Sequence record: PV806339.1
DNA: 60,026 nucleotides
Reading direction: 5' to 3' (one strand)
Source: a phage
Positions 335 to 57,919 of this stretch are shown here, one piece after another (the stretch's first letter is position 1; the number at the start of each line of letters is the position of its first letter). The notes beneath the pieces were generated by a model. The model made no database searches and was not told the origin of the DNA. It saw only the letters and a list, made by a program, of their open reading frames with translations. The translations under genes and the position numbers were made by a program.

Positions 335-1810
335 ATGCACGACTATCAGGACGAAGGCGTCCAGTTCATCAAAGACCATCCGTACTGCGGCATGTTCGTA
401 GACCTCGGCTTGGGTAAGACTGTCATGACCGGGACGGCCATGCTAGACCTGATCGCGGACGGCGAAATCAACAAAGTCCTCGTCGTCGCGCCGAAGCGAG
501 TGGCCCGTACCGGGTGGCCGACGGAATTCGACGAGTGGGGGCATCTGTGCTTCTACAAGATGTCGATTATCGCCGGAAACGCCAAAGAGCGCGCAGCGGC
601 CGCGAGTAAGGACTGTCACTTCTACACGATCAGCGTGGATAACATCGCGTGGCTATGTGAGCACTTCAAGACGAAATGGCCGTTCGACGCCGTGGTGCTG
701 GACGAGTCGAGCATGTTCAAATCCCACACCTCGCAGCGCTTCAAACTGCTGCGCCGGGTGCGGAAGTACATCAAACGGATCGTCGAGTTGACGGCCACGC
801 CTGCGGCCGAAGGGTACATGGGTATCTTCTCGCAAATTTACCTGCTGGACGAAGGCGAGCGCTTTGGCTCCACCATCGGCGGTTATCAGGAAAACTACTT
901 CACGCAGAACCGCTACAACTTCAAATGGAAACTTCGCCCCGGTGCGGAAGACGAGATTATTCGGAAGATTTCTGATATATGTTTAGTCATGAAAGCGGAA
1001 GACTACCTTGACATGCACGAACCGAATTTCGTTCCTGTCCCGGTCGAGTTAGACGGGGAGACGGCCGAGCGGTACCGCATGATGGAGGAAGAGAGCCTCG
1101 TCGAGATTATGCCGGACGATTTCGATGAACATCTGGATGACCCAATCGTGATCGAAGCGGAGCAGGCCGCGTCTTTGCAGTCGAAGCTATTGCAGATGTG
1201 CTCAGGCTTCATCTACGACACGAAAATCGTTGGCATAACGCAAGACGACAAGGTCATTAAGCAGAAGGACACGTACAGGCTGCACGACCTGAAATTCGAT
1301 GCACTGGAAGAACTACTGGAAACCACGCTGGCCGATAAAAACGTGCTGATCGCCTATCACTTCAAGCCGACCCTCGAACGACTGAAAGAGCGGTTTAAAG
1401 ATCTGGTGGTCATGGATGATGACGGTAAGTGCATCAAGAAGTGGAACGCCGGAAAGATTCGACTGCTGGCCGCGCACCCTCAGTCAGCGGGACACGGTTT
1501 AAACCTCCAGCATGGCGGCCACGTCATCGTCTACATCGACAATCCGTGGTCACTCGAACGCTTCCTGCAATTCAATGGCCGATTGCACCGTCAGGGGCAG
1601 AAGTACCCGGTTACGATCTACCAGTTCAAAGCCATGCTGCGAACACCGAACGGGCTTCTGGCCGAGACGGCGGACGACGTAGTCATACAGGCGCTGGTCG
1701 AAAAGGAAGACGTGCAGGACGCGTTCTTCGAACTGCTCGAACGTATCAAAGGGCGCATCAAACGCCGCAAGAAATCGAAAAATAAAGGGGTATGGGATGA
1801 CGAAGAGTAA
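335..1810 (+). CDS. SNF2-family helicase/ATPase
   Basis: DYQ..G region, Walker A GLGKTV, DExx box VLDESSMFK, C-terminal helicase motif HPQSAGHGLNLQ. The ORF opens at 251 but overlaps VRR-NUC. The first ATG after that gene's stop is 335, so the start is uncertain. Ends ...VWDDEE. Confidence 0.85.
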   Translation: MHDYQDEGVQFIKDHPYCGMFVDLGLGKTVMTGTAMLDLIADGEINKVLVVAPKRVARTGWPTEFDEWGHLCFYKMSIIAGNAKERAAAASKDCHFYTISVDNIAWLCEHFKTKWPFDAVVLDESSMFKSHTSQRFKLLRRVRKYIKRIVELTATPAAEGYMGIFSQIYLLDEGERFGSTIGGYQENYFTQNRYNFKWKLRPGAEDEIIRKISDICLVMKAEDYLDMHEPNFVPVPVELDGETAERYRMMEEESLVEIMPDDFDEHLDDPIVIEAEQAASLQSKLLQMCSGFIYDTKIVGITQDDKVIKQKDTYRLHDLKFDALEELLETTLADKNVLIAYHFKPTLERLKERFKDLVVMDDDGKCIKKWNAGKIRLLAAHPQSAGHGLNLQHGGHVIVYIDNPWSLERFLQFNGRLHRQGQKYPVTIYQFKAMLRTPNGLLAETADDVVIQALVEKEDVQDAFFELLERIKGRIKRRKKSKNKGVWDDEE

Positions 1811-2366
1811 TGCGCCACTGGCAACCCGGAATCGCCGCTCTAATGCGCCGGACGCCGATACCGAAGCGATGATCTTTCAGGGCTGCAACATCACGCAACT
1901 GGCGAAGCTGTTTCGCATGGAGCGCCGGGACATCACGCCGAAAATCATGGATGTCCCGCCTGTCGGCGAGCGTGGCGGGTACCCGATCTACGCGGTTCAC
2001 GAAGTGGCCCCGTACCTCGTTAAGCCGCTGTACGATGTCGAGACGTACCTGCGCCGCATGAATTTCAAGGATCTGCCGAAGGAGTTGTCGAAAGAGTTTT
2101 GGGCCGGGCAGCGTGCAAAGCAGGACTTCGACATCAAAGCGGGAAACCTGTGGGAAACCGAGAAGGTGATCGAGCACTTCGGCGAGGCGGTGAAGGTGCT
2201 GCGCATGTCGATGTTGCTCATTCCCGACACGCTGGCGCGTCAGGCCGGACTCAGCGAGCCGCAACGTCAGGTCATCACGTCATCCATTGACGCCATGCTG
2301 AACGACCTGTCGAGCGCGCTGATCGATAAGTTCAACGGCGACGAGGTGGATGACGATGAAGTTTAA
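1797..2366 (+). CDS. terminase small subunit, lambda Nu1-like
   Basis: The N-terminal winged-HTH-like segment NITQLAKLFRMERRDITPKIMDVPPVGERGGYPIYAVHEVAPYL parallels the lambda Nu1 N-terminus. It overlaps the start of the large terminase gene. Ends DDDEV. Confidence 0.7.
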   Translation: MTKSNAPLATRNRRSNAPDADTEAMIFQGCNITQLAKLFRMERRDITPKIMDVPPVGERGGYPIYAVHEVAPYLVKPLYDVETYLRRMNFKDLPKELSKEFWAGQRAKQDFDIKAGNLWETEKVIEHFGEAVKVLRMSMLLIPDTLARQAGLSEPQRQVITSSIDAMLNDLSSALIDKFNGDEVDDDEV

Positions 2367-4431
2367 GAGCATCGGGCAGATTATCAGTTCGGTGGCCGAG
2401 CAGTTACGGCCGCCAATGCGCATGACGGTGGCCGACGCGGCCGCCAAGTATCGCTACGTCAACCAACCCGGCGCATACGTCGGGGATTGGCTTAACTCGA
2501 CGACGCCGTACATGGTCGAGCCGATGAACATGATGAACAGCCGGGCGTACGACAAGATGGCCTTTGTCGGCCCGGCGCAGTCCGGTAAAACCGATGCGCT
2601 GATCCTGAATAGCATTGTCTATTCGGTGAAAGTTGACCCGATGGATCTGATGGTCTACTGCCCGACGTCAACGGCCGCGCGCGACTTCTCGATGCGACGT
2701 GTAGACCGTCTTCACCGCCATAGCCCGAAGGTGGGCGAAATGCTGATGAAGAACCGCGACGCCGACAACAAATTCGACAAACACTACGTCACAGGCATCA
2801 TCCTGACGTTGAGTTATCCGTCAGTAACCGAACTGGCCGGGCGTCCCGTTGGCCGCATCATCATCACCGACTACGACCGTATTGACGACGACATCGGTGG
2901 CGACGGTAACGCCTTCGACCTCGCATCAAAACGTACGACGACCTTCGGGTCGTTTGCCATGTGTGCAGCCGAGTCATCACCATCGCGCCCGATTAAAGAC
3001 CCAAGCTGGATTAAGCGCACGCCCCACGAAGCCCCGCCGTGTGACGGGATTGTCGGCCTGTACAACCGAGGCGACCGCCGCCGCTGGAAATGGCCGTGTC
3101 CGCATTGCGACCAGTATTTCGAAGGTACCTTCCAGCTTTTGAAGTGGAACACGAAAGACGCCGATGGCAACCCTCTAACCAACCTCGAAAAGTCGGAGAC
3201 AGTGCGCATGGCCTGTCCACACTGCGGCTGCGAAATAGACCCGGTTGATAAGTATGAAATGAACCTGTGGGGGATGTGGGTGCCGGAAGGCTGTCATGTC
3301 AACGAGTTGGGCCAACTGGCCGGGGTACCGATGCGCTCGTCGTTCGCGTCCTTCTGGCTTCGCGGAACGGCGGCCGCATTCATCACATGGCAGAAACTGG
3401 TTCTGAACTACCTCGATGCGATGGATGACTACGAGCGTACGATGTCCGAAGAGTCCTTGAAGAAATTCTGGAACAACGACATGGGCGAACCGTACGTGCC
3501 GAAGGCGATCGAGACGGTACGCGTTCCGGAAGCGCTGAAAGCCCGCGCCGAGAAGTGGCCGGAACAGACGGTGCCGAAGAATGTGCGGTTCTTGGCGGCC
3601 ACGGTGGACGTGCAGAAGCATAGCTTTGAAGTGTCGGTGCATGGCGTGGCCCCCGGCTACCCATTCGACACCTACCTGATCGACCGCTTCAACATCACGA
3701 AATCGCGCCGACTCGATGACGATGGCGACCCGAAAATCCTGCACCCGGGCGCGTACCTCGAAGATTGGGATCTCATTGAAACCGAAGTGATGAACAAGAC
3801 GTATCCGCTGTCCGATAATTCGGGCCGTTCGCTGCCGATCAAGATGACCGCGTGCGACTCCGGTGGTGAAGCCGGGGTAACGGGCAACGCGTACGAATTC
3901 TTCCGGAAACTGCGGAAGGAAGGGAAAACCGGGCGCTTCTGTCTGGTGAAGGGCGACCCGAAAGCGAACAACCCGCGCACCCGTGTAGCGCTACCGGACT
4001 CCAACCAGAAAGACAAGAAAGCCATCGCACGCGGCGACGTTCCGGTGCTGATGATTAACTCGAACGTGATGAAAGACAGCCTGAACGGCCGACTGGACGT
4101 CGTGGAGCCGGGCAAAGGCATGTACCACATCCCGGACTGGATGGGCGACGCGGTATTCGCCGAACTGTGTACGGAGACGCGTGACGAGAAAGGCTGGCAC
4201 AACCCATCCCACGCCCGAAACGAAACGTGGGACTTGGCATATTATTTATTGGGAATTTGCGTCAGTGGCCGCGTGCTCGGGATTGAGCAGATAGATTGGG
4301 ATAACCCGCCATCATGGGCGGCCGAGTGGGACGATAACAGCATGGTTATTTTACCGCAGAGCGATGAACCTATTGATGCACCGAAAGATACCGAATACAG
4401 TTTCGAGAAACTCGCAATGGCGTTAGCATAG
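2350..4431 (+). CDS. terL: terminase large subunit, lambda gpA-like
   Basis: 693 aa. Walker A VGPAQSGKT, paired CPHC motifs (CPHCDQYF, CPHCGCEI), and position between the TerS-like and W/portal-like genes. Confidence 0.9.
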   Translation: MTMKFKSIGQIISSVAEQLRPPMRMTVADAAAKYRYVNQPGAYVGDWLNSTTPYMVEPMNMMNSRAYDKMAFVGPAQSGKTDALILNSIVYSVKVDPMDLMVYCPTSTAARDFSMRRVDRLHRHSPKVGEMLMKNRDADNKFDKHYVTGIILTLSYPSVTELAGRPVGRIIITDYDRIDDDIGGDGNAFDLASKRTTTFGSFAMCAAESSPSRPIKDPSWIKRTPHEAPPCDGIVGLYNRGDRRRWKWPCPHCDQYFEGTFQLLKWNTKDADGNPLTNLEKSETVRMACPHCGCEIDPVDKYEMNLWGMWVPEGCHVNELGQLAGVPMRSSFASFWLRGTAAAFITWQKLVLNYLDAMDDYERTMSEESLKKFWNNDMGEPYVPKAIETVRVPEALKARAEKWPEQTVPKNVRFLAATVDVQKHSFEVSVHGVAPGYPFDTYLIDRFNITKSRRLDDDGDPKILHPGAYLEDWDLIETEVMNKTYPLSDNSGRSLPIKMTACDSGGEAGVTGNAYEFFRKLRKEGKTGRFCLVKGDPKANNPRTRVALPDSNQKDKKAIARGDVPVLMINSNVMKDSLNGRLDVVEPGKGMYHIPDWMGDAVFAELCTETRDEKGWHNPSHARNETWDLAYYLLGICVSGRVLGIEQIDWDNPPSWAAEWDDNSMVILPQSDEPIDAPKDTEYSFEKLAMALA

Positions 4432-9257: not shown

Positions 9258-9551
9258 ATGCCAAAACGTAAAGTTCTCCAGACCGTCATCGTTTACCGCG
9301 ACGGCGCGCGTATCAAACCGTCCATCGGCGAGATCTTCGATTTCAAACAAGCCGAACTGGACAGCATCAACAAAATCAACCCGGATGCCATCGGCCGCCC
9401 GGTGATGGAAGTTGACGTTGAAAATCAGGCTGCACAGGAAGCCGCAGCGCAGCAGGCGAAAGCTGACGCGTCCAAAAAAGACGAGAAGGCTGACGGTGCT
9501 AAGAAAAACGCCAAAGACGATAAAAAGTCTGGCGCGGAAGATGAAGTCTAA
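9258..9551 (+). CDS. hypothetical head/packaging-associated protein (occupies the lambda FI position)
   Basis: 97 aa with an AGGA-type SD. The C-terminal half is Lys/Ala/Asp-rich and probably disordered. Ends ...SGAEDEV. Confidence 0.75.
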   Translation: MPKRKVLQTVIVYRDGARIKPSIGEIFDFKQAELDSINKINPDAIGRPVMEVDVENQAAQEAAAQQAKADASKKDEKADGAKKNAKDDKKSGAEDEV

Positions 9552-17291: not shown

Positions 17292-18980
17292 ATGGCTTTG
17301 AGCGGACTGCGCCCCGCGCGCGAACAGTTTAACCAAGCAATCTACGACGCCCTTAACGGGGCGTACCAGCTTTACGTTCAGGACGTCTTCGGTCAGGCTG
17401 CGGCCAACCAGACGTACTACATGGCGAAGTGGATGAAGTTGAAGGCCGGGTCTTATACGGCGGTCATGTATGTCGATGACTCCGGCACCCTGTCTATCGA
17501 TCATGCCGTCGTCGCGACTGCGGCCATCGGCACCAATCCGAACAGCGGGGAGTTTACGATCTCCGCCGACGGCGTGTACCGCTTTGACTGCATCTACTCC
17601 AACGTCCCGGCCGACACCCCGGCGTACATGGCATTCCAGCTAATCCTTGACGGCCAGACCGTCGAGGTTAGCCGGGCCAACGACTTTATCGCGGACATCG
17701 TGCCGATCCCGGATAAGGCATTGGGGCCGAAGCCGCCATACTCCGACGACGTCCGCCTGACGTACCCGGTGTTCCTGCCGCTGCCGAACTGGAAAGACGG
17801 CGTCACCGAGCGCATCGAGTGGCAAACTGACGTCATGATTTCCGAGTCCGGCGCAGAACAGCGACGCCCGATCCGCCTGCACCCTCGCCGCTCATTCGAA
17901 GCGACGTTCCTGCGTTGGGAAGAAAAGCGTACGCTGCTCGATACGACCATCGCGGGCGTCGGCCAGTCTCCGTTACTCCTGCCTTTGTGGCACGACATGA
18001 CAGCCACGGAAAACGATGCGCCAGCCGGGTCGGTGGACATCTTCGGCCAGTTCCGGGTGAAAGACTTCAACGTGGGTGACGTGGTCATGTTCAACCGTGG
18101 CACGACGTGGGACTATGAGACGAACATCATCGCCGGGCTGGACATTGACGCCGGGCATATGACGCTGACGTTTGGCCTCCAGTCGGACACGCCGCGAGGC
18201 ACGCGCCTGTATCCGGTTCGCGTTGCGCAGATCCGGGAGGCGATGAACGGCCAGCAGATGACCGATAGCGTGTCACAGACCCAAGTCCGGTTCTTCTGCA
18301 CCGAGAACTATGACCTGACGCCATCGTGGTCAGACTTCCCTGTCTACACCCGTACCGGGCTGCACATCTTCGTCCTGCCGGAAGATTGGGGATCGTCCAA
18401 TGAAATCACGTCTGACCGCCTGACCTACAATTTCGATAACCAGTCCGGCCCGGTGGTCATTGTTGACCCGGGCGGCCAGAACTACGGCACCGTGAAGAAG
18501 TCGTACACCATTAACGGCCGCACAGCGGATCGGCAGTTCCGGCAGATCCTGTTCGCGCTCCGTGGCCGCACCAAGACTTTCCACCTGCCGCTCGATACGA
18601 ATGACTTCATTCTGTCCCGCGACATCAACCCGGCCGACGGCGCGCTCGTAGTCCGGCGCTGCGGTTATACTCAGTACATCGGCGGGACGCAGGAAACGAA
18701 ACGTGACATCATGGTCGAACTGTACGACGGCACCAGAATCCCGACCACCATCATTTCGAGTCGTATCGTTGGGGATGAAGAGTGGCTATTCCTGTCACAG
18801 TCCATCCCGGCGACGTCCAGAAACGACGTCCGGCGCATCGGATATATCCCCGTAGCGCGATTAGATGTTGACGGAATCGAAATAAAACGGTTGACTGACT
18901 CGGCGGGCGTAAGTCAAGTTTCTCTGACCTTCAAGTTTTTCGACGATCGGAGGATTGCAACGCCCTTACCATTATCATAA
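17292..18980 (+). CDS. distal tail / tail-tip protein (GTA g12 / DUF2460-like)
   Basis: 562 aa. The segment ERIEWQTDVMISESGAEQRRPIRLHPRRSFEATF...LLLPLWHD resembles the family found upstream of BR0599-type genes. Confidence 0.5.
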   Translation: MALSGLRPAREQFNQAIYDALNGAYQLYVQDVFGQAAANQTYYMAKWMKLKAGSYTAVMYVDDSGTLSIDHAVVATAAIGTNPNSGEFTISADGVYRFDCIYSNVPADTPAYMAFQLILDGQTVEVSRANDFIADIVPIPDKALGPKPPYSDDVRLTYPVFLPLPNWKDGVTERIEWQTDVMISESGAEQRRPIRLHPRRSFEATFLRWEEKRTLLDTTIAGVGQSPLLLPLWHDMTATENDAPAGSVDIFGQFRVKDFNVGDVVMFNRGTTWDYETNIIAGLDIDAGHMTLTFGLQSDTPRGTRLYPVRVAQIREAMNGQQMTDSVSQTQVRFFCTENYDLTPSWSDFPVYTRTGLHIFVLPEDWGSSNEITSDRLTYNFDNQSGPVVIVDPGGQNYGTVKKSYTINGRTADRQFRQILFALRGRTKTFHLPLDTNDFILSRDINPADGALVVRRCGYTQYIGGTQETKRDIMVELYDGTRIPTTIISSRIVGDEEWLFLSQSIPATSRNDVRRIGYIPVARLDVDGIEIKRLTDSAGVSQVSLTFKFFDDRRIATPLPLS

Positions 18981-38390: not shown

Positions 38391-38399
38391 ACGCTTTCT

Positions 38400-39086
38400 T
38401 TAAATCTCGTCCCACATCTTGATCCAGCGGTTCCGGATCTTGGCCGATACGTTAGCCAGTGGCGCGCCGATTTCCAGTAGCGTTTCACGGTCGATATACT
38501 CGTTGGGGTGAATGCGGTCACTCTCCGGGTCGAAGATGTGGATGGCCGCGCCGAACCCGGCTGACGTGATTTCGCTGCTGCCTTCCTTCGGCCGGAACCA
38601 GACTGGCGGTTCAAACCCGATGCGCCCTTTGATGAAGATGGTACGCGTGGCGATAGCGTCCGGCCACCAGCTTTCTGATGTCGCGGACTTGGTCAGCCAG
38701 ATGGTTCCCGCACCTTTGGCCCGTTCTTCGTCGGCCTTGCGCATGATGTGCGTCATCCCGGTCAGGTGATCTTTCCCGGCGCGCTTCTGGCTGTAAGGGG
38801 GGTTAGCGTAGGCCCAAACGCGGGTCTTCTGGTCGAACCCGTCGCTGGCGTGGATCTCGGCCAGACGTTTTGACCAGTCCTGCTTTAACGCATTGTCTTC
38901 GGCGGTGAAGAAGCGCTGACATTTGGCGTTCTGGCCGTCGGTGAACAGGTCAAGCACGATTGGCCCGTACAGCTTGTTAATCGCTTGAAACAGCCATTCC
39001 GGCGTACGCCATTGGTCGCCGATCATCTTTGGTTCGTGTTCGTCCATGTTTTTCATGGCGTTGAGTGCATCAACATACTGGCTCAT
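38400..39086 (-). CDS. dam: DNA N6-adenine methyltransferase (phage Dam family)
   Basis: DQWRTPEWLF...LDLFT, the catalytic NPPYS motif and the C-terminal FIKGRIGF match the phage Dam (T1-type) family pattern. Confidence 0.8.
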   Translation of the reverse strand: MSQYVDALNAMKNMDEHEPKMIGDQWRTPEWLFQAINKLYGPIVLDLFTDGQNAKCQRFFTAEDNALKQDWSKRLAEIHASDGFDQKTRVWAYANPPYSQKRAGKDHLTGMTHIMRKADEERAKGAGTIWLTKSATSESWWPDAIATRTIFIKGRIGFEPPVWFRPKEGSSEITSAGFGAAIHIFDPESDRIHPNEYIDRETLLEIGAPLANVSAKIRNRWIKMWDEI

Positions 39087-40186
39087 TAAAACGTGTCTCC
39101 GTTAAGCAGGTCTTCGGCCTCGCGGTAGAAGGCTTCGTATTTGTCCTCCGACATCATTGTCAGCGAATGGACGCCTGCATATTTGCGGGTCAGATCGCTG
39201 AACGTGGACGCGCTCGCGAGGGAGTGGAGGCGGTTGATCATGTCTTTGACCATTTGCTGCGTGACCGTCTTCGGTGGCGGTGACAGCAGCAGGTTATCGC
39301 ACATCGCATGGATGAACGACGTTACTTGTGGCGGAAGCCCGACTACCAGATCTGCATCAATGCGATAGTGCGGGATTTCGAGGTATTCCGCCGCCTGTAA
39401 CGGGTATGTGTGGAAGGCGGACAGGACAACCATGCGAGCGGCCGTAAGGTCGATGGCCGCCAGTTCTTCCCATGCCGCGCGAACCGAGGCGGACTGTCGG
39501 GTGTACCGTACGTTATTCTGTAGTGACTTGATCGTGGCGCGCAGCTTAGTGATTTCCCGGTCGTGCTCGGTGTTATCGTCGGCGTGACGGCGGTGGGCCT
39601 CGGATAACTGGATTTGCAGACTGGTGACAGCGCTTTCAGCAGTATCGAGACGGCGGCCTTTGTCGTCCAGCGCTTCGCGTAGTGCAGCCAGTTCGCCCGG
39701 CGTGATGTTGGCGAGGCGCAGCGGTTCGAAGTCTTTCAGCGTCAGCGGGCCATCGCTGGTCATCTGTCCGGTCAGGCGCTGTATGTCCTGCATGGCGAGG
39801 CTTCCGGCCAGTTCGAGGCTGGTGGTGCCTGCAATCTTCGCGTATTTAGCGCGGGCGCGTACCGTTTCGAGGATGGTGCTCAGGATCTGCTGGCACTGCT
39901 CGCGCTCCCACTCGGTCACTTCGGCGGCCGTTGGCGTAACTGCGGACGGACGTTTAACCCGCGTCCAGTGAATGCGGATCTCCCGGGGCATCGCGTCACC
40001 GTCCACCTCGACTTCATCGACTGACTGGATGTTCCCTTCCGGAACGCCGCAGTTATCGAGAAGGTATTTATGCGCCACGCACAGGATATGATTCGGGGAT
40101 ATGCCGCCTTCCTGCTCGATAGCCATGACGAGGATGTCTTTCAGGCTTTTGTCGTCGGTGATGTAAGTGACTTTTGGTTCGCTCAT
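39086..40186 (-). CDS. hypothetical protein
   Basis: 366 aa. TAATG coupling to dam. Contains a coiled-coil-like central region. Confidence 0.8.
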   Translation of the reverse strand: MSEPKVTYITDDKSLKDILVMAIEQEGGISPNHILCVAHKYLLDNCGVPEGNIQSVDEVEVDGDAMPREIRIHWTRVKRPSAVTPTAAEVTEWEREQCQQILSTILETVRARAKYAKIAGTTSLELAGSLAMQDIQRLTGQMTSDGPLTLKDFEPLRLANITPGELAALREALDDKGRRLDTAESAVTSLQIQLSEAHRRHADDNTEHDREITKLRATIKSLQNNVRYTRQSASVRAAWEELAAIDLTAARMVVLSAFHTYPLQAAEYLEIPHYRIDADLVVGLPPQVTSFIHAMCDNLLLSPPPKTVTQQMVKDMINRLHSLASASTFSDLTRKYAGVHSLTMMSEDKYEAFYREAEDLLNGDTF

Positions 40187-42236: not shown

Positions 42237-43313
42237 TTAAACCTCGTCGTCGTCTTCTTCGTCGTTCAGCGTTCCGGTGTACTCGACTACCTGCCCGGCC
42301 TCGTCCAGCACGCTGATCACCGCACGCAGGGACTTATCGAGTTGGAACAGGTTAGCCATCATGGTCAGGAACTGGCCGCCGTCGGTGCCGTAGCGTTCGA
42401 GCGTGGCGTCGTAGTTCGCATCAACGTCGGCCTCGCCGATGTGGATACCGGACAGGATGGCTTTGTCGGACAGGCGGAAGTACACGGTGTCGATGCCCGG
42501 GCATTGCGTATCGACTTCGAGATCCAGCGCGCGGACAGTCCAGTGACGTGACAGCAGGTCAACCACCGACTCGTCTTTGAAGATGTCCGTGTCCTTCATC
42601 TTGACGTCGTCGCCATCGTCGTGTTTCAGGTGGATAAACGCATCGCCCTTGATGCCGTCCTGCTGGCCGAGAACCGCGCGCTGCATTAACTGGCGCAGCT
42701 CATACTCGCTCGGCAGGAGGTGTTCGACGGGCCATGTGCCGAGCGCGGTACGGATCAGCGCGCTGCACTCTTCTGCCGTCTTCGCGCTCGACGTGAACAC
42801 GTACACGAACGGGGCGGACAGGATGACGTTGACGCGGGAAGGGCGGATAGGCGCGTGTTTCAGCATTTCCGCTTCCACGTCGTCCTTCATCTGCGCCCAA
42901 TCCTTGCGGTTCGGCTCCCAACCCTCGATCTCTTTCTCCCGCAACGCGGCCATGCGCTTCACGACTTCATTTCGTACGCTGACGCCGGGCAACACACGTT
43001 CGCGCTTCTCGATCTGGAAGACGATGGCGTTTGTTCCGGGGATGGCGAGGGCGAATTTACTTTCAACCTCTTCGCCGTACGCTGCAAAGCCCATTGTCTT
43101 GTAAGACGCCTCCGGCGGATCTGACACTTCATGCTTTTCGAGTGCATCGCTAAACGCTCCTTTCGCGAAAGCCGTTACGGCCTCTTCGTCAACGTTCGGC
43201 AGGTTCAGGATCAGGCGGTGCAGCGGCTTGACCTTCTCGTTACCGTCGTTGGCCGCGTCATACAGCGCGCCGAGGTGCAAGATAATGGCTTTCTCATAAC
43301 CCTTGATTTTCAT
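42237..43313 (-). CDS. RdgC-like recombination-associated protein
   Basis: 358 aa. The segment ERVLPGVSVRNEVVKRMAALREKE...VFTSSAKTAEECSALIRTALGTWPVEHL parallels E. coli RdgC (...[21 protein letters not shown]) as I recall it. Ends EEDDDEV. Confidence 0.5.
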   Translation of the reverse strand: MKIKGYEKAIILHLGALYDAANDGNEKVKPLHRLILNLPNVDEEAVTAFAKGAFSDALEKHEVSDPPEASYKTMGFAAYGEEVESKFALAIPGTNAIVFQIEKRERVLPGVSVRNEVVKRMAALREKEIEGWEPNRKDWAQMKDDVEAEMLKHAPIRPSRVNVILSAPFVYVFTSSAKTAEECSALIRTALGTWPVEHLLPSEYELRQLMQRAVLGQQDGIKGDAFIHLKHDDGDDVKMKDTDIFKDESVVDLLSRHWTVRALDLEVDTQCPGIDTVYFRLSDKAILSGIHIGEADVDANYDATLERYGTDGGQFLTMMANLFQLDKSLRAVISVLDEAGQVVEYTGTLNDEEDDDEV

Positions 43314-43656
43314 GCTCTATGGCTCCTACGTTAATTAAATTGGCTGGTGCTCCGTGGTACATCGACTGCGCAGCATGGAACATCGCGGCGCGTAGTGCTT
43401 CTTTGGCCGCCCGAAGGCCCGCCATTGATTCAGCGTACTGGTCGCTGACCGTGTTATACGCCGCCTCGTCGTTGTCCAGTGTGGCGAGGTCAAGCATTTT
43501 GGTACTGTGGGCCTGCACTTCGTCTTCCATGTCCTTGAAAAACGTCTCAAGGGCAGACAGTTTGCAGGTGATTTGGTCTAACCGGACTTTGCGCAGTTCT
43601 TGGAACTGCACGCGAACGAATTCAATGCCTTCCACCAGCCACCTCCACGACGACAT
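43294..43656 (-). CDS. hypothetical coiled-coil protein
   Basis: 120 aa, within the operon. Confidence 0.65.
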   Translation of the reverse strand: MSSWRWLVEGIEFVRVQFQELRKVRLDQITCKLSALETFFKDMEDEVQAHSTKMLDLATLDNDEAAYNTVSDQYAESMAGLRAAKEALRAAMFHAAQSMYHGAPANLINVGAIEHENQGL

Positions 43657-44455: not shown

Positions 44456-44827
44456 TTAAACTTCGTCGTCGTCCGAAACGTCGGTGTCAGTACAGGTCAC
44501 AACGGCCTGAATGAACATGCGGCCAGACGGGTAAGTCACCAGCGCGGATTCCATGCTGAACCGTTGGCCGTGGTGTTTCATGGCGTTCCGGATGGAAGAA
44601 TTAAGGCTGGCCCGCATCTTCGCTTTGAGGGCATTGGCCTCGTCCTGTACCTGCGAAAGCGTACGGTCAAGCGGGAGTTCTTGGGACAGGGTGTACACGC
44701 CACCGACTTCCAGCGCAATGAGGTTCCCCACGACGCTGTACACGCGCACGCGTGACGGCAGTTCAACATCCGGCTCGGTCGTCATCATTGCGCCAGTCAG
44801 TTCGGCCGGGCTTAGTTCTTTGCTCAT
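44456..44827 (-). CDS. hypothetical protein (first gene of leftward operon 1)
   Basis: 123 aa. TGGAG SD. Ends ...VSDDDEV. Confidence 0.75.
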   Translation of the reverse strand: MSKELSPAELTGAMMTTEPDVELPSRVRVYSVVGNLIALEVGGVYTLSQELPLDRTLSQVQDEANALKAKMRASLNSSIRNAMKHHGQRFSMESALVTYPSGRMFIQAVVTCTDTDVSDDDEV

Positions 44828-51696: not shown

Positions 51697-51984
51697 ATGC
51701 AGCACGATGAATGCCGTGAAACGTTGATGGATTTCAAACGACAATTACAGACACATTTGAAGGCGATTTTACGTCGTCAGGGGGTCACACAGAGCGCGCT
51801 TGCGACGATGATCGGCGTACACCAGTCAAGATTAAGTTTCATGCTTAACAGTGACGCAGACAGAGTTTCGATCGATAAACTCATTGAAGCGATAGTGAAA
51901 CTGGACGGCGTGTTTATGGTGAAAATCGGAGATCAAACAGACATAAATCGAGTGCGGTACAAGGAGTGCGAAGACAACGTTTGA
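51697..51984 (+). CDS. XRE-family HTH DNA-binding protein
   Basis: 95 aa. HTH segment VTQSALATMIGVHQSRLSFMLN. Confidence 0.75.
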   Translation: MQHDECRETLMDFKRQLQTHLKAILRRQGVTQSALATMIGVHQSRLSFMLNSDADRVSIDKLIEAIVKLDGVFMVKIGDQTDINRVRYKECEDNV

Positions 51985-52024: not shown

Positions 52025-54610
52025 CTAAACTTCGTCTTCATCGTCAAACGGGTCTGGCTTTTTGCCGACCAGTTTTTCGACTTCTGCGTCATGCCGTTTT
52101 AACGTAGTCTGCACCCACGACGAGTTAAGTTTCCCCGCGTCGTCGAATGCCCCTTTGACCCGCTTCCTGACATAAACGCGGCCAGATTCGCCGCCAAATT
52201 TGACCACGCCGCCCGGCTTGAAGCCCAATTCCATAAGCATGTTTTTCAGGCGGTTCGTCTTCGGCATTTCCACGTCTGTCATTTCGAGGAATGCGTTTTT
52301 CAGGGACGGCACGAAGATGACGTCGCGGTGTACGCCCGGCGTCGTTCCGTCACGAAGCATTTGTGCGATTGCGCCTTCCACGCCATCGTCAGACGCGTCG
52401 GCCATGACCGCGAATGCTTCGGTGTCCTGCGGTGCGTGTCCTTTGGCATCGAAATCCTTTCCGATCTCCCAATCGAGGAACCACTTTTTGATAGCAGGTG
52501 CGTGGTTTTCGATTGCCCGGTACACGTTTTTGAAGAAGCGCGCGCGTTCAGTCTTCGACCCGTAAACCCGCTCCATGTCCAGATGATTTTCTGCCTGCGT
52601 GGACACCACCAGATAACGACGCTGGTTTTCATCGAGTGGCAATGCGTTGAAGTGGTTGGTGAACATCATTTTGCTGCTGGTGTTCACGACTTCCTTCGGC
52701 TTGCGGCCCTTTGGCTCAATCTGGAAGCGATCGTTTGTGATGAATTCCTTCTGGCGTTCCACCGCGCTGTACCGATCGCCTTTGTCGTAGATCTCTTCCA
52801 CGATTTTCAGGATGTGGCCCTCGGCCCAATCGCTGAAACGGCCATTCATCACGGTGTTTGACACATAGCCCACGTTCGACGCGCCGAGCATCCGCGACAT
52901 GATGATGCCGAGCGTCGTTTTACCAGAACCATGCGCACCACGGATCAGAAGCGAGTAGTTGATGCGTTTCGTTGGGTGCTGAATAACCCACGCCATCCAG
53001 TCCAGAACATAGCGGCGTTCCTTCTCGTTCGGGAAAAGCACGATGAAGAAGTCTTTGATGATCTCCAGCGCCTTTTTGTCGTACGGAGAAAGGTCAGTCG
53101 CGGCCTCCGGAATGGATTCAGGGTCAAAAGAGTTCAGCCACGTACGCCCACGGTCGTCAATAAAGAATTCCGGCCCGATCACCCCCTCTTTCGGCTTCCA
53201 CACAGATTCCGGCATGTCACCGTGCATCGCCGGGTAGTACATCGCGTCCCAAACGATAGGAACCGGGCGGACTACCGACGCATAGTGGACAGGCTTGAAG
53301 GCTTCTTCCTCAAACACGCATTTTTTCGCAAAAGCGACGTCGAAAGCGCCTTTTGTGATGTAATCGCCCGTGGTTTTTTCGATAAAACTGTCATTTGCCT
53401 TCGAGAAAACGAAGTTTTTCAGCCACTGCGGAGTCTCTTTTGACCCGTAATCGAAGCCCAAAAGCTCCCTTTTGTCACCAGCAGTGAGGCGGAAGTTGTT
53501 GATCCTGCGGTATGCTTCGGCCGCAATCTGGACGATGGCCTTGCGGGTAAGCCCGAAAATCTGCGCTTTTTTGAATGATTCGGCCCACGCATTCCAGTCA
53601 TTCGCCTCGGTACACTCGGCGAAAGCCTCGCGGTACTCGATGGCGCGTTCTTCCTGCTCGGCTTTCTCGATGTCCTGCACTTCTTTGATGATGGTGCCGA
53701 GCGTGATCAGTCGAGTCGAGTTGTGCGCGAAGCCCTTATCCCACTTGTATTCGAAATCACCTTCGTCGAAGTTGTGTGCCTGCATGGCCCATTCGCGGGC
53801 AATGGCCTTCGCCTCGTCCTGATCGCGGCAGGAAATTTGCAGCGCGGCCAGTACGGTGATGTAGTTCTCGTAATCTTCCGGGTTCGGGTATTTCAGGACG
53901 ATGTCGCGCAGTTCATCGTACGTGCCGTCCCACTTTTTGACGTCAGACAGCGCGGCCCAATCGTCATCGTCTGCCGAACCGATAGACTCATAACCGTTCA
54001 TTGGCCGTTTGACCATTGTCCAGCCCAAGTCCTTCGCGTATCGGTCGAATTCGGCGGCGATCTCGCGAGCGGTATCGAGGCTGATCTCTTCGAGGTCAAG
54101 GTCGGCGGCGTTGTTCAGCGGATTCTCGCCATCAATCCAGTAATAGTCGCGCTTGGTGTCCGGGTGGATACCGTACGCAACGAACTGCTGGCCGTCGGCG
54201 AGGATTTCAACTGCATGGCGCTGGCCGAAGTCGTCTTCCCACACGCCGGATTTCACTTTGGCGAACGGGTTTTCGGTTCGGTACAGGTAGAGTTTCTTCG
54301 GCTCCCGGCCGATACGACATGGCGCTGCACCGACGTTCTCGGCGATCCAGTCTGCCATGTGCGCCACGGCGTCTTCATCGTAAACGTCGATGTCAACCGC
54401 CGGGGTGTATTTGGTCAGAATCCCGATGCCGTTATTCGTATAGCGTTTCGCCCAACGCTGGATCTGCTCCTTATCATTGATTGTTCGTTCCCAATCTTCA
54501 CCGATAGGGCGTTTGCCCGCACCCTTCTTATCGGCGTCCGGGGCGTAGATAGGTACGATGGTGTACCCATTCCCCCAAAGCGTTTCGCCGTACTCTTGCC
54601 AGTAGTTCAT
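52025..54610 (-). CDS. bifunctional primase-polymerase / P-loop helicase (prim-pol plus P4/D5-type NTPase)
   Basis: 861 aa. N-terminal prim-pol-like region (GYTIVPIY...GKRPIGEDW), Walker A GAHGSGKTTLG, Walker B-like ILKIVEE. Ends FDDEDEV. Confidence 0.85.
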   Translation of the reverse strand: MNYWQEYGETLWGNGYTIVPIYAPDADKKGAGKRPIGEDWERTINDKEQIQRWAKRYTNNGIGILTKYTPAVDIDVYDEDAVAHMADWIAENVGAAPCRIGREPKKLYLYRTENPFAKVKSGVWEDDFGQRHAVEILADGQQFVAYGIHPDTKRDYYWIDGENPLNNAADLDLEEISLDTAREIAAEFDRYAKDLGWTMVKRPMNGYESIGSADDDDWAALSDVKKWDGTYDELRDIVLKYPNPEDYENYITVLAALQISCRDQDEAKAIAREWAMQAHNFDEGDFEYKWDKGFAHNSTRLITLGTIIKEVQDIEKAEQEERAIEYREAFAECTEANDWNAWAESFKKAQIFGLTRKAIVQIAAEAYRRINNFRLTAGDKRELLGFDYGSKETPQWLKNFVFSKANDSFIEKTTGDYITKGAFDVAFAKKCVFEEEAFKPVHYASVVRPVPIVWDAMYYPAMHGDMPESVWKPKEGVIGPEFFIDDRGRTWLNSFDPESIPEAATDLSPYDKKALEIIKDFFIVLFPNEKERRYVLDWMAWVIQHPTKRINYSLLIRGAHGSGKTTLGIIMSRMLGASNVGYVSNTVMNGRFSDWAEGHILKIVEEIYDKGDRYSAVERQKEFITNDRFQIEPKGRKPKEVVNTSSKMMFTNHFNALPLDENQRRYLVVSTQAENHLDMERVYGSKTERARFFKNVYRAIENHAPAIKKWFLDWEIGKDFDAKGHAPQDTEAFAVMADASDDGVEGAIAQMLRDGTTPGVHRDVIFVPSLKNAFLEMTDVEMPKTNRLKNMLMELGFKPGGVVKFGGESGRVYVRKRVKGAFDDAGKLNSSWVQTTLKRHDAEVEKLVGKKPDPFDDEDEV

Positions 54611-54888
54611 TCAAGGATTTCCCCTGTTTCGCTGTCCGTTTTGATCCATGAAGGGTTAGTCAGCCAATGCGGACGGATGCCGCAGTGAGGGACAGCTTTG
54701 CAAACTTTTTCGGCCACGCTGCTCGTTACGTTGTTCTGCACGGCCCATAACAATGTCGGGTAACTGATCTTCGCTGCCTTCGCCAGTTCGGCCATTCTGG
54801 CGTTCGGGTCTACCTCCAAAGCCGCTTGCATCATGAGAAATTTGACCCGCATCCGGTCGTCGTTTAAAGCCCAATCTGGAAATCGCAT
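54607..54888 (-). CDS. Cro/YdaS-like HTH protein
   Basis: 93 aa. HTH-like MAELAKAAKISYPTLLWAVQN. GAGGG SD. ATGA-coupled to the primase gene. Confidence 0.65.
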   Translation of the reverse strand: MRFPDWALNDDRMRVKFLMMQAALEVDPNARMAELAKAAKISYPTLLWAVQNNVTSSVAEKVCKAVPHCGIRPHWLTNPSWIKTDSETGEILE

Positions 54889-54930
54889 AGTGATGCCCTC
54901 GCGTAATGTGCGCGTGTTATAGATTTGCGG

Positions 54931-54959
54931 ATATTATATCCGGGCTTGACATCTGTCAA
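54931..54959 (-). promoter_or_regulatory. sigma70-type promoter for the HTH-primase operon
   Basis: Minus strand reads TTGACA-GATGTCAAGCCCGGATA-TAATAT (17-bp spacer). The -35 element is part of the palindrome CTTGACAtcTGTCAAG. Confidence 0.7.
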
Positions 54960-54968
54960 GTTGGCCAG

Positions 54969-55029
54969 TTATTCGGGTACCAAAGGCGCTTTATGTCCGG
55001 AAAACAAAGGGCTTGCGGTACCCGAATAA
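54969..55029. repeat. 13-bp perfect inverted repeat TTATTCGGGTACC (35 nt) GGTACCCGAATAA
   Basis: Arms at 54969-54981 and 55017-55029, between the divergent promoters. Confidence 0.9.
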
Positions 55030-55048
55030 AAAATTTCTAAAAAAGTGT

Positions 55049-55078
55049 TTGACAGTGATTCGGCGTTTGGGCCATACT
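55049..55078 (+). promoter_or_regulatory. sigma70-type promoter for the rightward replication/structural block
   Basis: TTGACA-GTGATTCGGCGTTTGGGC-CATACT (18-bp spacer), 53 nt upstream of the ATG at 55131. Confidence 0.55.
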
Positions 55079-55130
55079 TCATCCCGTCAACACGACACGA
55101 CCTTTTAAACACTTAACGGAGTAGAAAATT

Positions 55131-55547
55131 ATGTCTGGTATCTTCGAACAACTGCTGGCTGAACAACAAAAAACCAACACCCTGCTGGAAGGCGTTCTGG
55201 CAGCACTGAAAGGCGGCGCGGTGAACACTTCCGCTGACGCTGGTAGCGAAACTACTGAAAAAACCACCACCACCAAAGGCGGTGCTAAGGGCGGCGCGAA
55301 AGGCGGTGCAGGTAAAACCGAAACTAAAGCGGTCAAGCCTAAACACACCAAAGACGAAGTAGTCGCGGCTGTCGTTGCGGTTAAAGACGCGTTCGGCGCG
55401 CCGGAAGCCAAGAAAATCACCGCACACTTCGGCCTCGCCAAAGTCGCGGAAGCGAAGGAAGAACACTTCGACGAAATCGTCGAAATGTGTGAAGCCAAAC
55501 TGGCTGAAAAAGATGAAGGCGGTAACGGCGAAGAAGACGACGTTTAA
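55131..55547 (+). CDS. hypothetical protein with a Lys/Gly/Thr-rich low-complexity centre
   Basis: 138 aa. GGAG SD. First gene after the rightward promoter and followed directly by a terminator. Ends GEEDDV. Confidence 0.75.
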   Translation: MSGIFEQLLAEQQKTNTLLEGVLAALKGGAVNTSADAGSETTEKTTTTKGGAKGGAKGGAGKTETKAVKPKHTKDEVVAAVVAVKDAFGAPEAKKITAHFGLAKVAEAKEEHFDEIVEMCEAKLAEKDEGGNGEEDDV

Positions 55548-55562
55548 TCTTTCGCCCCGCAT

Positions 55563-55587
55563 CGGCTCCCTTCGGGGGGCCGTTTTT
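55563..55587 (+). terminator. rho-independent terminator (UUCG loop) after the first rightward gene
   Basis: CGGCTCCC-TTCG-GGGGGCCG followed by TTTTT. Confidence 0.85.
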
Positions 55588-55608
55588 CACACCAACGGAG
55601 AGGCAATT

Positions 55609-55938
55609 GTGACCAGCATTACTTTCACCAACGTAGCAACATCCGGCGGCGCAGTTCTCGCGCGCACTTGGGCGGAGTTTCGTTTTCAAATCGGTGATCG
55701 CGATGTGCTGTTCAGAGTTACTTCACCTGTTTCGAAACACGAAGCGCCGCTGCTCGTAACCCATGCTGCATCGGGCTATCGAGTGTGCGACGTCTGGTGG
55801 GACGACGTGGCGAAGACTCGCTTTAACGCAGGCCGCAATAATTACAGCGGGGCAGGCGCTAGGGCATTGGTAGCGACGATTGAGCGAGTCGGCGAACACC
55901 GATTCCTCAATGCGATAAAGGCGTATCCGAATGAGTAG
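55609..55938 (+). CDS. hypothetical protein
   Basis: 109 aa from the GTG 55609, preceded by GGAGAGG. The longer ORF from 55375 overlaps the upstream gene and the terminator. Confidence 0.6.
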   Translation: MTSITFTNVATSGGAVLARTWAEFRFQIGDRDVLFRVTSPVSKHEAPLLVTHAASGYRVCDVWWDDVAKTRFNAGRNNYSGAGARALVATIERVGEHRFLNAIKAYPNE

Positions 55939-57268
55939 TAAGTCACTGTTAGTCCGCATCATGCGGGAATTCGGCGGTGGCGGCCACTCAATCTTCGCGC
56001 CTTCTGCGTCAGCGCGTTGGATCGCATGTTCTGGAAGCCTGATAGCCGGGCTTTTCGAGCATGACGAAACCATCTACGAGGCGGCGGAAGGCACGGTGGC
56101 CCACGGAATCGCCGAACAATGGCTGCGAACGGATGTCCGGCCAACCCATTTAATCGGTACGGTCGAGACGATCACGGAAGGCGGTGTCAGCCATGACATC
56201 CCCATTACTCGGTCAATGCTCGACTCGGTTCAGGAGTACGTTGACTGGTGCCGATTTGAAGAGGGTGAAATGTTCACGGAAATCCGGGTCTGGTTTACCG
56301 ACCTGATGCCGCGAGCGAACCCGGATGAACCTGACGAAGACCCGATCGAGTTTGTCGCTCAGGGCGGAACGGCGGATAATATCATCATCCGCGACCGAAC
56401 CTTGATCGTGACCGACCTGAAATACGGGACTGGCGTTCAGGTTTTCGCGGAAGGGAACCCGCAGGCGCTACTTTACGCGTACGGTGCGTACCGCGCTTTC
56501 TCGGATGAATACGAGTTTGACCGTATTGTCATCCGGATCGCGCAGCCGAGGCTCGACCATTTCGATACGTGGGAAATCACGATTGACGAATTGTTAGAGT
56601 TCGCGGAGTATGCCCGGGAGCGAATTGCAGCGGCATGGAGCCTTACCGCGCCGCGCCGCGCATCCCTGAAAGGGTGTCGCTTTTGCCGGGCAGCACATAA
56701 CTGCGCAGCGATAGCGTACATGATGGAATGCGCAGTGGGCGGGGACGTGGAATTCCTTGAAGCTGAATTCGGGGAGGAAGAAATGTCAGTATTGCGTGAT
56801 GCGCTGGCGCAGGAATATAAGTTCCGGCGTGCGCAGTTCGGAAACCTGACAACCGAGCAGATGGCGAAGATCCTGCCATACCGCAAGGTGGTCGAAAACT
56901 GGTTCTCGCGCCTTGACTTCGAACTGGAACGCCGCGCAATGAACGGCGAGAAGGTACCGGGTCAAAAGCTGGTGGAGTCGCGGACAAACCGTAAATTCGC
57001 CAACGAGAAAGATGCGATCGCGCTGTTCCGGTTCCTCGATATTGACGAGGACAAGTACATCGAACGCAAACTGCGTACCCCGGCGCAGATGGAAGAAGTG
57101 CTTAGGGATGAATTGGGCGTGTCCCGGGCTGGCGCGCCGAACATCATCGCGGGGATCGTCTACAAGCCGGAAGGCAAGCCGACACTGGCACCGCTGACCG
57201 ATAAGCGGCCACCACTGGACGGCAAGTATTCCGGGGCGTGGGACGACGAAGATGATGACGAAGTGTAA
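55931..57268 (+). CDS. PD-(D/E)xK nuclease, DUF2800 / Cas4-like
   Basis: 445 aa. PSASARWIACSGS and AAEGTVAH at the N-terminus, the VTDLKYGTG catalytic motif, and the Cys cluster CRFCRAAHNCAA. Ends WDDEDDDEV. Confidence 0.85.
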   Translation: MSSKSLLVRIMREFGGGGHSIFAPSASARWIACSGSLIAGLFEHDETIYEAAEGTVAHGIAEQWLRTDVRPTHLIGTVETITEGGVSHDIPITRSMLDSVQEYVDWCRFEEGEMFTEIRVWFTDLMPRANPDEPDEDPIEFVAQGGTADNIIIRDRTLIVTDLKYGTGVQVFAEGNPQALLYAYGAYRAFSDEYEFDRIVIRIAQPRLDHFDTWEITIDELLEFAEYARERIAAAWSLTAPRRASLKGCRFCRAAHNCAAIAYMMECAVGGDVEFLEAEFGEEEMSVLRDALAQEYKFRRAQFGNLTTEQMAKILPYRKVVENWFSRLDFELERRAMNGEKVPGQKLVESRTNRKFANEKDAIALFRFLDIDEDKYIERKLRTPAQMEEVLRDELGVSRAGAPNIIAGIVYKPEGKPTLAPLTDKRPPLDGKYSGAWDDEDDDEV

Positions 57269-57311
57269 ACCCGTAAAACCGTAGAAAGTAAACCCGTAAA
57301 ACAGTAAACCG
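57265..57311 (+). repeat. GTAAACCCGTAAAAC direct repeats in the SSB 5' UTR
   Basis: Copies at 57265-57279 and 57288-57302, plus the partial copy agtaaaccg at 57303-57311. They end 12 nt before the SSB ATG. Confidence 0.9.
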
Positions 57312-57322
57312 AGGATATTAAG

Positions 57323-57919
57323 ATGGCCGAGAAATTAGTCCCTGCGAAAAAAGTCAAGAATGGCGTGCTGTACAAATCTGGTCACATCAAGATTTCTAAC
57401 GTACGTGCTTCTTACCCGCACCTCGATAAGCCGTACGGCGGTGAAGACGGCGGCGAGCCGAAATACTCGCTGACGCTTTTGATGCCGAAAGACAGCCACG
57501 GCGAGATCGAGAAAATCATCCGTGAGCAGATCGAAGTCACCAAGAAGAACCACAAGACAGGCGCGCTGAAAGTCGCCCCGTCCATGTTGTTCATCAAAGA
57601 CGGTGATACCGATTTTCCGGATAAACCGGAATGCGAAGGGATGTGGGTTATCTCCGCACGCGAAAGCAAACGCCCGGATGTGTATAACATCGAGCGCGAA
57701 GAGTTGACTACCTCTTCCGAAATTCTGGAAGAGATCTACGGTGGTTGTTGGGTGTCGGTTGTCATCCGTCCGTGGTCGCAGGAAAACAAATTCGGCAAAC
57801 GCGTTAACGCCAACCTGATTTCCGTTCTGAAACGCAAAGACGACGAGCCGTTCGGTGAAGGTCGTGTGGACACGTCCGACGCGTGGGATGAAGACGAAGA
57901 TTGGGAAGACGAAGTGTAA
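57323..57919 (+). CDS. single-stranded DNA-binding protein, DUF2815 type
   Basis: 198 aa. ISNVRASYPHLDKPYGG...KYSLTLLMPKD matches the DUF2815 pattern. Sits between the DUF2800 gene and polA. Acidic tail ends WEDEV. Confidence 0.8.
   Translation: MAEKLVPAKKVKNGVLYKSGHIKISNVRASYPHLDKPYGGEDGGEPKYSLTLLMPKDSHGEIEKIIREQIEVTKKNHKTGALKVAPSMLFIKDGDTDFPDKPECEGMWVISARESKRPDVYNIEREELTTSSEILEEIYGGCWVSVVIRPWSQENKFGKRVNANLISVLKRKDDEPFGEGRVDTSDAWDEDEDWEDEV

Follow-up and report, generated by a model that had tools for sequence, protein, structure and literature searches.

The nucleotide sequence of record PV806339.1 (60,026 bases; the whole of this stretch is referred to here as the window) represents the whole genome of a Chivirus (Casjensviridae) in circularly permuted form, with 99.8% identity to Salmonella phage KFS-SE1 over the replication region (52025-60025). 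Transfer of the KFS-SE1 annotation, 73 genes, to the window gave 72 genes; the gene for the family-A DNA polymerase PolA reaches the window end and the VRR-NUC gene straddles the end-to-start junction. Nine of the 72 proteins end in [DE][DE]V-COOH, eight of these nine in [DE][DE]EV, and this short acidic C-terminal tip, which is found on proteins of replication, recombination, DNA modification and packaging, is the subject of the present analysis.

An earlier reading of the sequence (the original prediction) had quoted ten such C-termini, one of them the variant VWDDEE of the SNF2 helicase, and had proposed that they are bound by a single reader protein. All ten are present at the ends of the genes listed in Table 1, including that of the SSB (single-stranded DNA-binding protein), quoted as AWDEDEDWEDEV, and PolA was correctly described as having no tip.

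Tipped proteins of the window

The tipped proteins belong to unrelated Pfam families (DUF1441, DUF7443, PAPS_reduct, Dam, RdgC, DUF7609, Prim-Pol/PriCT_2/DUF5906, DUF2800 PD-(D/E)XK, Enc34_ssDNA-bd and SNF2) and their tails fall outside the Pfam domain envelopes. The RdgC domain, for example, ends at residue 330 of 358, and the protein encoded directly after the major capsid gene (post-capsid protein) consists of an N-terminal DUF7443 domain followed by a charged low-complexity linker and then the tip. The SSB aligns over nearly its full length with the solved Enc34 ORF6 (PDB 5ODJ/5ODK/5ODL; E=1e-117). Eleven of its last 18 residues are Asp or Glu, and in an AlphaFold2 (AF2) model the tail has a predicted local distance difference test (pLDDT) score of 56-63 vs >90 in the core. 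Three further proteins have variant tips, namely the SNF2 helicase, a Dam-type DNA methyltransferase and a helix-turn-helix (HTH) regulator; the latter two were not in the original prediction.

Table 1 Tipped proteins of the window, two proteins without a tip, and the post-capsid genes of three relatives.
Protein	Position	Strand	C-terminus	C-termini in other phages
SNF2-family helicase	281-1810	+	...GVWDDEE (variant, aromatic-acidic)	Other lineages, full aliphatic tip: EDDEI, DDDEL, TAAGL
Terminase small subunit TerS (DUF1441, phrog_141)	1797-2366	+	...DEVDDDEV
Terminase large subunit TerL (GpA_ATPase + GpA_nuclease)	2356-4431	+	No tip
97-aa protein, lambda-FI position, immediately behind the major capsid gene	9258-9551	+	...SGAEDEV
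PAPS-reductase-like (PP-loop) protein, PAPS_reduct	33620-34519	-	...LFDEDFEDDEV
Dam-type N6-adenine DNA methyltransferase	38400-39086	-	...KMWDEI (variant)	BUCT551: MEEEEI
RdgC-like recombination-associated protein	42237-43313	-	...NDEEDDDEV
DUF7609 protein (phrog_6647, function not assigned)	44456-44827	-	...DVSDDDEV
HTH DNA-binding regulator	51697-51984	+	...ECEDNV (weak variant)	Close relatives: AENDEV, AGENEV
Primase-helicase (Prim-Pol + PriCT_2 + DUF5906/SF3-type helicase)	52025-54610	-	...PDPFDDEDEV	Other lineages: DDEEI, DDDEL, AGCGL
138-aa protein of unknown function (phrog_7721)	55131-55547	+	...GNGEEDDV	Orthologues: EDEV, EEDDV, DDDDI
DUF2800 PD-(D/E)XK (Cas4-like) exonuclease	55961-57268	+	...GAWDDEDDDEV	Orthologues: WDDDEI, DDDDEL, TADDGL
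gp2.5-type SSB (DUF2815 / Enc34_ssDNA-bd)	57323-57919	+	...DAWDEDEDWEDEV
Family-A DNA polymerase PolA	57986-60025	+	No tip, YFYRKD
Post-capsid gene, BUCT551	42908-43315	-	NDDEI
Post-capsid gene, phiWae15	18117-18377		PEDDL
Post-capsid gene, BcepNazgul	39055-39312	-	ASASGL

Two of the tipped proteins lie in a cluster of genes of nucleotide and DNA-modification type on the minus strand (32881-39086), which encodes a nucleoside 2-deoxyribosyltransferase, the PP-loop protein similar to phosphoadenosine phosphosulfate (PAPS) reductase, a ThyX-like protein and the Dam-type enzyme. The gene for the last of these is named 'phosphoadenosine phosphosulfate reductase' in a RefSeq relative, while Pfam assigns it to the Dam-type N6-adenine methyltransferases (E=1e-30); the name derives from a PHROG that is a fused PAPS-reductase and Dam family.

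Enrichment over chance

The original prediction had proposed a tabulation of C-termini against composition-matched shuffles, and in this comparison the nine tips far exceed expectation. The expected number of [DE][DE]V ends is 0.088 from the composition of each protein and 0.11 when calculated from how often the tripeptide occurs internally. None of 20,000 shuffles gave more than 3 (the maximum), and the Poisson probability of the observed nine is 8e-16. The longer motif [DE][DE][DE]EV occurs six times at C-termini and never internally in the 72 proteins. Ten proteins have a net charge of -4 or lower in their last eight residues and nine of these have a terminal Val. Among open reading frames (ORFs) of at least 40 aa in all six frames the [DE][DE]V ending is present in nine and no more, each of them an annotated gene. 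Compositional chance was rejected on these grounds, with about 0.1 ends expected against nine and no extra ORFs in the six frames. An aromatic residue, Trp or Phe, had also been noted a short distance upstream of the tip, and this is borne out, as [WF][DE][DE] is present within the last 15 residues of eight proteins compared with 1.1 expected.

The proteomes of T7, lambda and T1 served as controls. In T7 an acidic tail is found on gp2.5 (DEDGDF) and gp4 (SNDTDF) only, and in lambda and T1 there are a few unrelated acidic ends that have no common terminal residue.

Peptide-level selection of the tips

Tips of this kind might have no function and be a by-product of composition or of nucleotide signals at gene ends, such as a Shine-Dalgarno-like GAGGTG or a repeated DNA element. 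GAG GTG, which encodes Glu-Val, does look like a Shine-Dalgarno core, and the TerS tip does overlap the TerL start: its codons GAT GAA GTT TAA are read in another frame as ATG AAG TTT (MKF; 2349-2366), which makes the TerS tip dual-coding; none of its nucleotides varies within the Chi clade. TerS is the sole tip that overlaps a downstream start codon. The codon usage of the tips argues against a nucleotide signal, since the terminal Val is encoded by GTT, GTG, GTC and GTA, and the penultimate codon is GAA in seven of the nine tips and GAA or GAC, not GAG, in eight of the nine. In other lineages the last codon becomes an Ile, Leu or Phe codon. Terminator-like sequences or hairpins lie 3' of the genes for the primase-helicase, the phrog_7721 protein and the SSB, and the gene for the DUF7609 protein is separated from the next gene by 71 nt; at least four tips are followed by a hairpin or by no co-oriented gene. 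Where a terminator-like hairpin follows, the tip serves no gene further downstream. The diverse codons and the tips at operon ends led to the rejection of a Shine-Dalgarno or DNA-motif artefact, and with only about 0.1 such ends predicted from composition the by-product explanation as a whole is hardly credible.

Selection acts on the peptide. Across the 15 Chi-clade genomes in which codons were compared, the Val is retained through synonymous changes while Asp and Glu swap freely. Together with the enrichment, this supports the view that the tips are a selected and strictly C-terminal feature common to unrelated families, as judged from their sequences.

Conservation in homologues

The tip is conserved in homologues, and the original prediction, which had asked whether it is kept where the adjacent sequence diverges, is upheld for the SSB, RdgC and TerS. 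Each of the 120 SSB homologues from the databases closes with an acidic run followed by one aliphatic residue (Leu in 72, Ile in 35, Val in 9 and Met in 4). The RdgC homologues retain ...DDDEV down to 41% identity, although the residues just upstream cannot be aligned, and those with <30% identity end in ...DDDI or ...DDEL. For TerS, 101 of 107 homologues end in Leu, Ile or Val, nearly all behind an acidic run.

Lineage-specific terminal residue

Tips were compared among 80 viral loci around the SSB gene and three complete relatives, BUCT551, phiWae15 and BcepNazgul (Nazgul). The gene sets of the relatives come from greedy ORF calling of a simple kind; some genes were overlooked by it, and these were taken from the annotations where needed.

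Within a genome the terminal residues of different proteins agree, while between lineages they differ. Chi-like phages have EV on the primase, exonuclease, SSB, TerS and the phrog_7721 protein. Lineages L027/L033 and BUCT551 have EI or DI on the primase, exonuclease, SSB, SNF2, TerS, RdgC, Dam and post-capsid proteins, and phiWae15 has EL or DL, as do many other lineages. In Nazgul the ending is GL on the primase, exonuclease, SSB, SNF2, TerS and post-capsid proteins and on two proteins of unknown function. The terminal residue is Phe in L074/L077 and Phe or Tyr in L060/L064/L071, and the L070 group ends in (L/M)LD.

The agreement was quantified in two ways. When automated ORF calls are tabulated by genome and terminal dipeptide, the diagonal counts are 8 for [DE]V in the window (9 in the annotated gene set), 6 for [DE]I in BUCT551, 6 for GL in Nazgul and 10 for [DE]L in phiWae15, with each diagonal count having a P value between 1e-5 and 1e-8 and off-diagonal counts of 0 to 3; addition of annotated genes missed by the ORF caller raises BUCT551 and Nazgul to 8 each. 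Among 40 lineage representatives and five protein families there are 151 pairs with the same terminal residue compared with 70 +/- 5.7 after permutation, and 49 compared with 10.6 +/- 2.9 for residues other than Leu, in a test that handles shared ancestry only in part.

The terminal residue has switched in concert several times. On the SNF2 tree the ancestral state looks to be Leu, with a single origin of Val, three or more origins of Ile and a separate origin for each of Phe, Phe/Tyr, GL and LD, which amounts to at least six separate concerted switches. The post-capsid genes of the four complete genomes have no detectable mutual similarity, yet each carries the code of its own genome (AEDEV in the window; Table 1). 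The window protein has no sequence similarity to lambda FI, to which it is linked by synteny alone. Proteins with no known function that are specific to a lineage also bear the local code, and a Pfam scan of those from phiWae15 and Nazgul gave no informative matches. The TerS tips co-vary with those of the SSB, primase and exonuclease as tightly as those three do with one another. A change of one terminal residue in many unrelated proteins together is hard to explain other than by a common constraint, and the simplest one suggested by the sequences would be a shared pocket that reads the last side chain and carboxylate, beside a basic surface for the acidic run.

In a Cronobacter JC01-like clade (L020, L025, L028, L030 and L032) the primase, exonuclease and SNF2 proteins end in ..DTWE, ..AWDDE and ..EEW, while the SSB and TerS retain ..DDDI, a pattern suggestive of another motif or reader in that clade that is separable from the first.

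Comparison with known C-terminal motifs

The closest likeness is to phage T7, in which the acidic tails of gp4 and gp2.5 compete for basic patches on the DNA polymerase gp5/thioredoxin (PMC10359462). As in T7, a disordered acidic tail with one hydrophobic end residue is found here on a gp2.5-fold SSB and on the primase-helicase. The SSB has the gp2.5-type oligonucleotide/oligosaccharide-binding (OB) fold (Enc34 ORF6 is structurally gp2.5-like) and an acidic C-terminal tail, the hydrophobic C-terminal residue is conserved (Leu, Ile, Val or Met in each of the 120 homologues), and the primase-helicase has the same kind of tail, with orthologues that follow the lineage code. In these sequence features the two window proteins fall within the T7-type tail class, and by analogy binding to the polymerase is putative. 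The window differs from T7 in having 9 to 12 tipped proteins rather than two, including the nuclease, RdgC, SNF2, methyltransferase, PAPS-reductase-like, TerS and post-capsid proteins; in its terminal residue, which is aliphatic Val rather than Phe; and in the lineage-specific terminal code. Its primase-helicase combines an archaeo-eukaryotic primase (AEP) Prim-Pol with a superfamily 3 (SF3)-type helicase and is not of the DnaG/DnaB type, and its PolA is only distantly related to solved family-A polymerases, with a weak resemblance to Pol theta (E~1e-5).

ORF6 of Enterobacter/Hafnia phage Enc34 is essentially the same protein as the window SSB and ends in ...WDEDEV (cloning primer in PMC5686142; also L010). 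Its tail is acidic and disordered in the crystal, where the end that can be traced occupies the DNA groove of an adjacent molecule; deletion of the tail permits binding of double-stranded DNA (dsDNA) (PMC5686142). The tail is treated there as a feature of the SSB only, and neither a tip on other proteins nor co-variation between lineages is reported (PMC5686142). The original prediction regarded a proteome-wide tag as undescribed, and a literature search of incomplete coverage found none. The claim to novelty was overstated for the SSB and primase-helicase, where the T7 gp2.5/gp4-type tail is established and the Enc34 SSB tail had been noted (PMC5686142). What goes beyond these precedents is the spread over no fewer than nine proteins, among them factors of packaging and DNA modification, and the lineage-specific code.

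The tip of bacterial SSB (SSB-Ct; ...DDDIPF in E. coli) is likewise an acidic run with a hydrophobic C-terminus and free carboxylate, and is a docking handle in DNA metabolism. There a single tagged SSB is bound by many readers, whereas here many proteins are tagged, and the tips end in (D/E)(D/E)V without the Pro-Phe of SSB-Ct. The code of the phage is not that of its host, to whose SSB network it would therefore be orthogonal. The ending of SSB-Ct itself does occur in related phages: the small replication-module protein phrog_8318 of the window (55609-55938) ends in KAYPNE, while its homologue in the Chi relative L011 (IMGVR_UViG_2974711357) ends in WDDDIPF; the distant primase of L079 ends in DPDYIPF, and T1 (L091) ST27 (32211-32633) in DDDIPF. 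Mimicry of the host SSB tip therefore occurs in this phage gene pool.

In T4 the sliding clamp gp45 reads motifs of one kind at the extreme C-termini of gp43, gp33 and gp55. The likeness lies in several unrelated proteins of one phage sharing one C-terminal motif for a single hub. The T4-type motif is hydrophobic (LxxLF-type), whereas the tips are dominated by Asp and Glu with a single aliphatic end; they lack the clamp consensus (QL[SD]LF, T4 type), and no clamp homologue was found by Pfam in 70 of the 72 window proteins. The tips are also unlike ssrA-like degrons, which have a non-polar C-terminal tripeptide such as LAA that ClpXP, ClpAP or Tsp recognises, in that they are acidic up to position -2. 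C-terminal codes are known in eukaryotes too, where class III PDZ ligands have the form [DE]-x-hydrophobic-COOH and the EEVD-COOH of Hsp70/Hsp90 is read by TPR domains. The ending ...D-E-V-COOH fits [DE]-x-Phi-COOH, but the likeness is formal only, and neither a PDZ nor a TPR domain was found among the window proteins that were scanned.

A proposed docking code and its candidate readers

The tips are probably short C-terminal docking motifs for a common phage-encoded partner, or for very few cross-compatible sites, to judge from their sequences and co-variation. The motif would consist of a disordered acidic run, often behind an aromatic W/F-D-D/E element, and one aliphatic end residue with a free carboxylate, and would resemble the tail of the phage's own gp2.5-type SSB. 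It would be carried by the SSB, primase-helicase, Cas4-like exonuclease, RdgC, SNF2, Dam, PAPS-reductase-like enzyme, TerS, post-capsid protein and two proteins of unknown function, all of which would dock on one basic and hydrophobic site, the same site or sites as used by the SSB tail. Docking may concentrate or exchange these enzymes at replicating, SSB-coated DNA, and through TerS and the post-capsid protein recruitment may extend to the packaging complex. Between lineages the pocket for the last residue would drift, with all tagged proteins following (V, I, L, M, F/Y or GL).

The terminal code follows the phage lineage and not the host, which favours a phage-encoded reader. Aeromonas phages differ (Ile in BUCT551 and Leu in phiWae15), as do Providencia phages (Val in Redjac/PibeRecoleta and Met in Kokobel1). 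From this and the concerted switching we infer that a reader exists and that it is encoded by the phage. Of the original single-reader proposal, the shared reader is thus favoured, whereas the host hub it offered as one candidate is not, since phages of the same host genus have different terminal residues.

PolA, the OB groove of the SSB and TerL are the candidates for the reader. The non-structural core proteins that all four complete genomes have and that never carry a tag are PolA and TerL (VRR-NUC is also usually without a tag). For PolA there is also the precedent of T7 gp5. The C-terminus of PolA, ...[FY]YRKD-COOH, is near-invariant across lineages (orthologues L003-L073), even at about 50% identity. 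The SSB groove is a candidate by analogy with Enc34 and T7 gp2.5, and TerL is a candidate for the TerS and post-capsid tips. Conserved basic clusters are present in both PolA and TerL and therefore do not discriminate between them. Large hypothetical proteins specific to Chi (366, 272, 246 and 201 aa) were also considered and rejected; they have no assigned family and, except for one Nazgul BLAST match to the 201-aa protein, no homologues in BUCT551, phiWae15 or Nazgul, and so cannot be the universal reader.

Alignments of PolA, SSB, TerL, SNF2, exonuclease and primase were scanned for columns that three mutually independent Ile-tip clades have in common and that Leu-tip lineages seldom have. 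Two columns in TerL and one in the primase matched. At TerL residue 293 (motif HCGxE-IxPD) Glu is present in all Val- and Ile-tip lineages, including the independent L039/L043 clade, and is replaced in Leu-tip lineages; L024 and the TerS of L020 are exceptions.

Several observations count against a common docking site, in addition to the shared ancestry mentioned above. Co-variation is a strong preference and not a rule: L036 mixes Val, Leu and Ile, L012/L013 have one DDDDDI tip among EV tips, and in some lineages a W-acidic end replaces the aliphatic tip on the primase, exonuclease and SNF2. A PDZ, TPR, clamp or other C-terminal-peptide-binding domain was not found by Pfam in 70 of the 72 window proteins, and PHROG scans of window proteins were likewise without PDZ, TPR or clamp. 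No column of PolA, SSB, SNF2 or the exonuclease tracks Ile versus Leu tips, and TerL Glu293 falls short of significance once multiple testing is allowed for (chance alone would give about 0.6 columns of this kind among about 5,300), which with its exceptions makes it a lead only. In the AF2 model the tail of the full-length SSB is not placed with confidence on its own protein. Finally, a reader shared between packaging and replisome proteins has no established precedent.

Alternative explanations

Each acidic tail might instead be an intramolecular DNA mimic that acts on the DNA-binding surface of its own protein, in autoinhibition or in discrimination against non-specific dsDNA, with the likeness between tails being convergent, owing to DNA binding by all the tagged proteins, and no reader shared. 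Every tagged protein of a recognisable family (9 of 12) is DNA-related, the other three being of unknown function; the Enc34 tail lies in a DNA groove in the crystal and the SSB binds dsDNA once the tail is removed (PMC5686142), and the T7 gp2.5 tail competes with single-stranded DNA for the OB domain (PMC10359462). Autoinhibition does not, however, predict the joint switch of the last residue (for Nazgul, of the final dipeptide GL) across 5 to 10 unrelated proteins, seen in six lineages or more, nor an invariant Val behind freely swapping Asp and Glu, and the Nazgul tips AGCGL, TAAGL and ASASGL are barely acidic yet have the same terminal dipeptide. As the whole explanation it is unlikely, although an intramolecular role can coexist with docking, by analogy with T7, where both occur.

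About the same low probability attaches to a plurality of phage readers with similar pockets. PolA might then read the proteins of the replisome and of recombination, and TerL those of packaging (TerS and the post-capsid protein), with the code shared only by cross-compatibility or common descent. TerS C-termini classically bind TerL (lambda Nu1-gpA), PolA and TerL are the two core proteins that lack tags, and the pattern at TerL Glu293 across Val/Ile- and Leu-tip lineages points the same way. This arrangement is opposed by the TerS tips, which co-vary with the replisome tips as tightly as these do mutually, and the TerL column, with its exceptions, is within chance expectation. Less likely still is a reader supplied by the host, either a hub like the SSB-interacting proteins or a protease or adaptor for which the tips would be C-terminal degrons that set the time of protein turnover. 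Degrons and SSB-Ct recognition typically involve a strict C-terminal position and a free carboxylate, and some related phage proteins do bear the host-type ...DDDIPF end, but the code tracks the phage lineage within the Aeromonas and Providencia phages, and ...DDEV has neither the Pro-Phe of SSB-Ct nor the non-polar LAA of ssrA-like degrons. A degron would, moreover, degrade the essential, abundant SSB and the late TerS together.

Significance

The docking proposal can be extended, tentatively, to Casjensviridae-type phages in general. The majority of their proteins of replication, recombination, modification and packaging might be wired to one phage hub by a private, co-evolving C-terminal code that is orthogonal to the host SSB-Ct and to co-infecting relatives, and which new genes join by gaining a tip; we consider this extension possible but rather doubtful. 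Were there no common reader, the concerted switching of the terminal residue would itself call for a new explanation.

The Val, Ile, Leu, Met, Phe/Tyr and GL variants are a natural co-evolution series for mapping a peptide-binding pocket, and Chi-like phages are easy to handle, so that peptide, deletion and suppressor approaches are workable in them. If the common reader is real, the DUF7609, phrog_7721 and DUF7443 post-capsid proteins would be placed in the network, to which related phages would add examples of their own, and the tips could possibly serve as short orthogonal recruitment tags. Replication and recombination would then be physically linked to packaging, for which there is no clear precedent, and a compact interaction code, readable from sequence, would organise the whole network of DNA metabolism and packaging in these phages.

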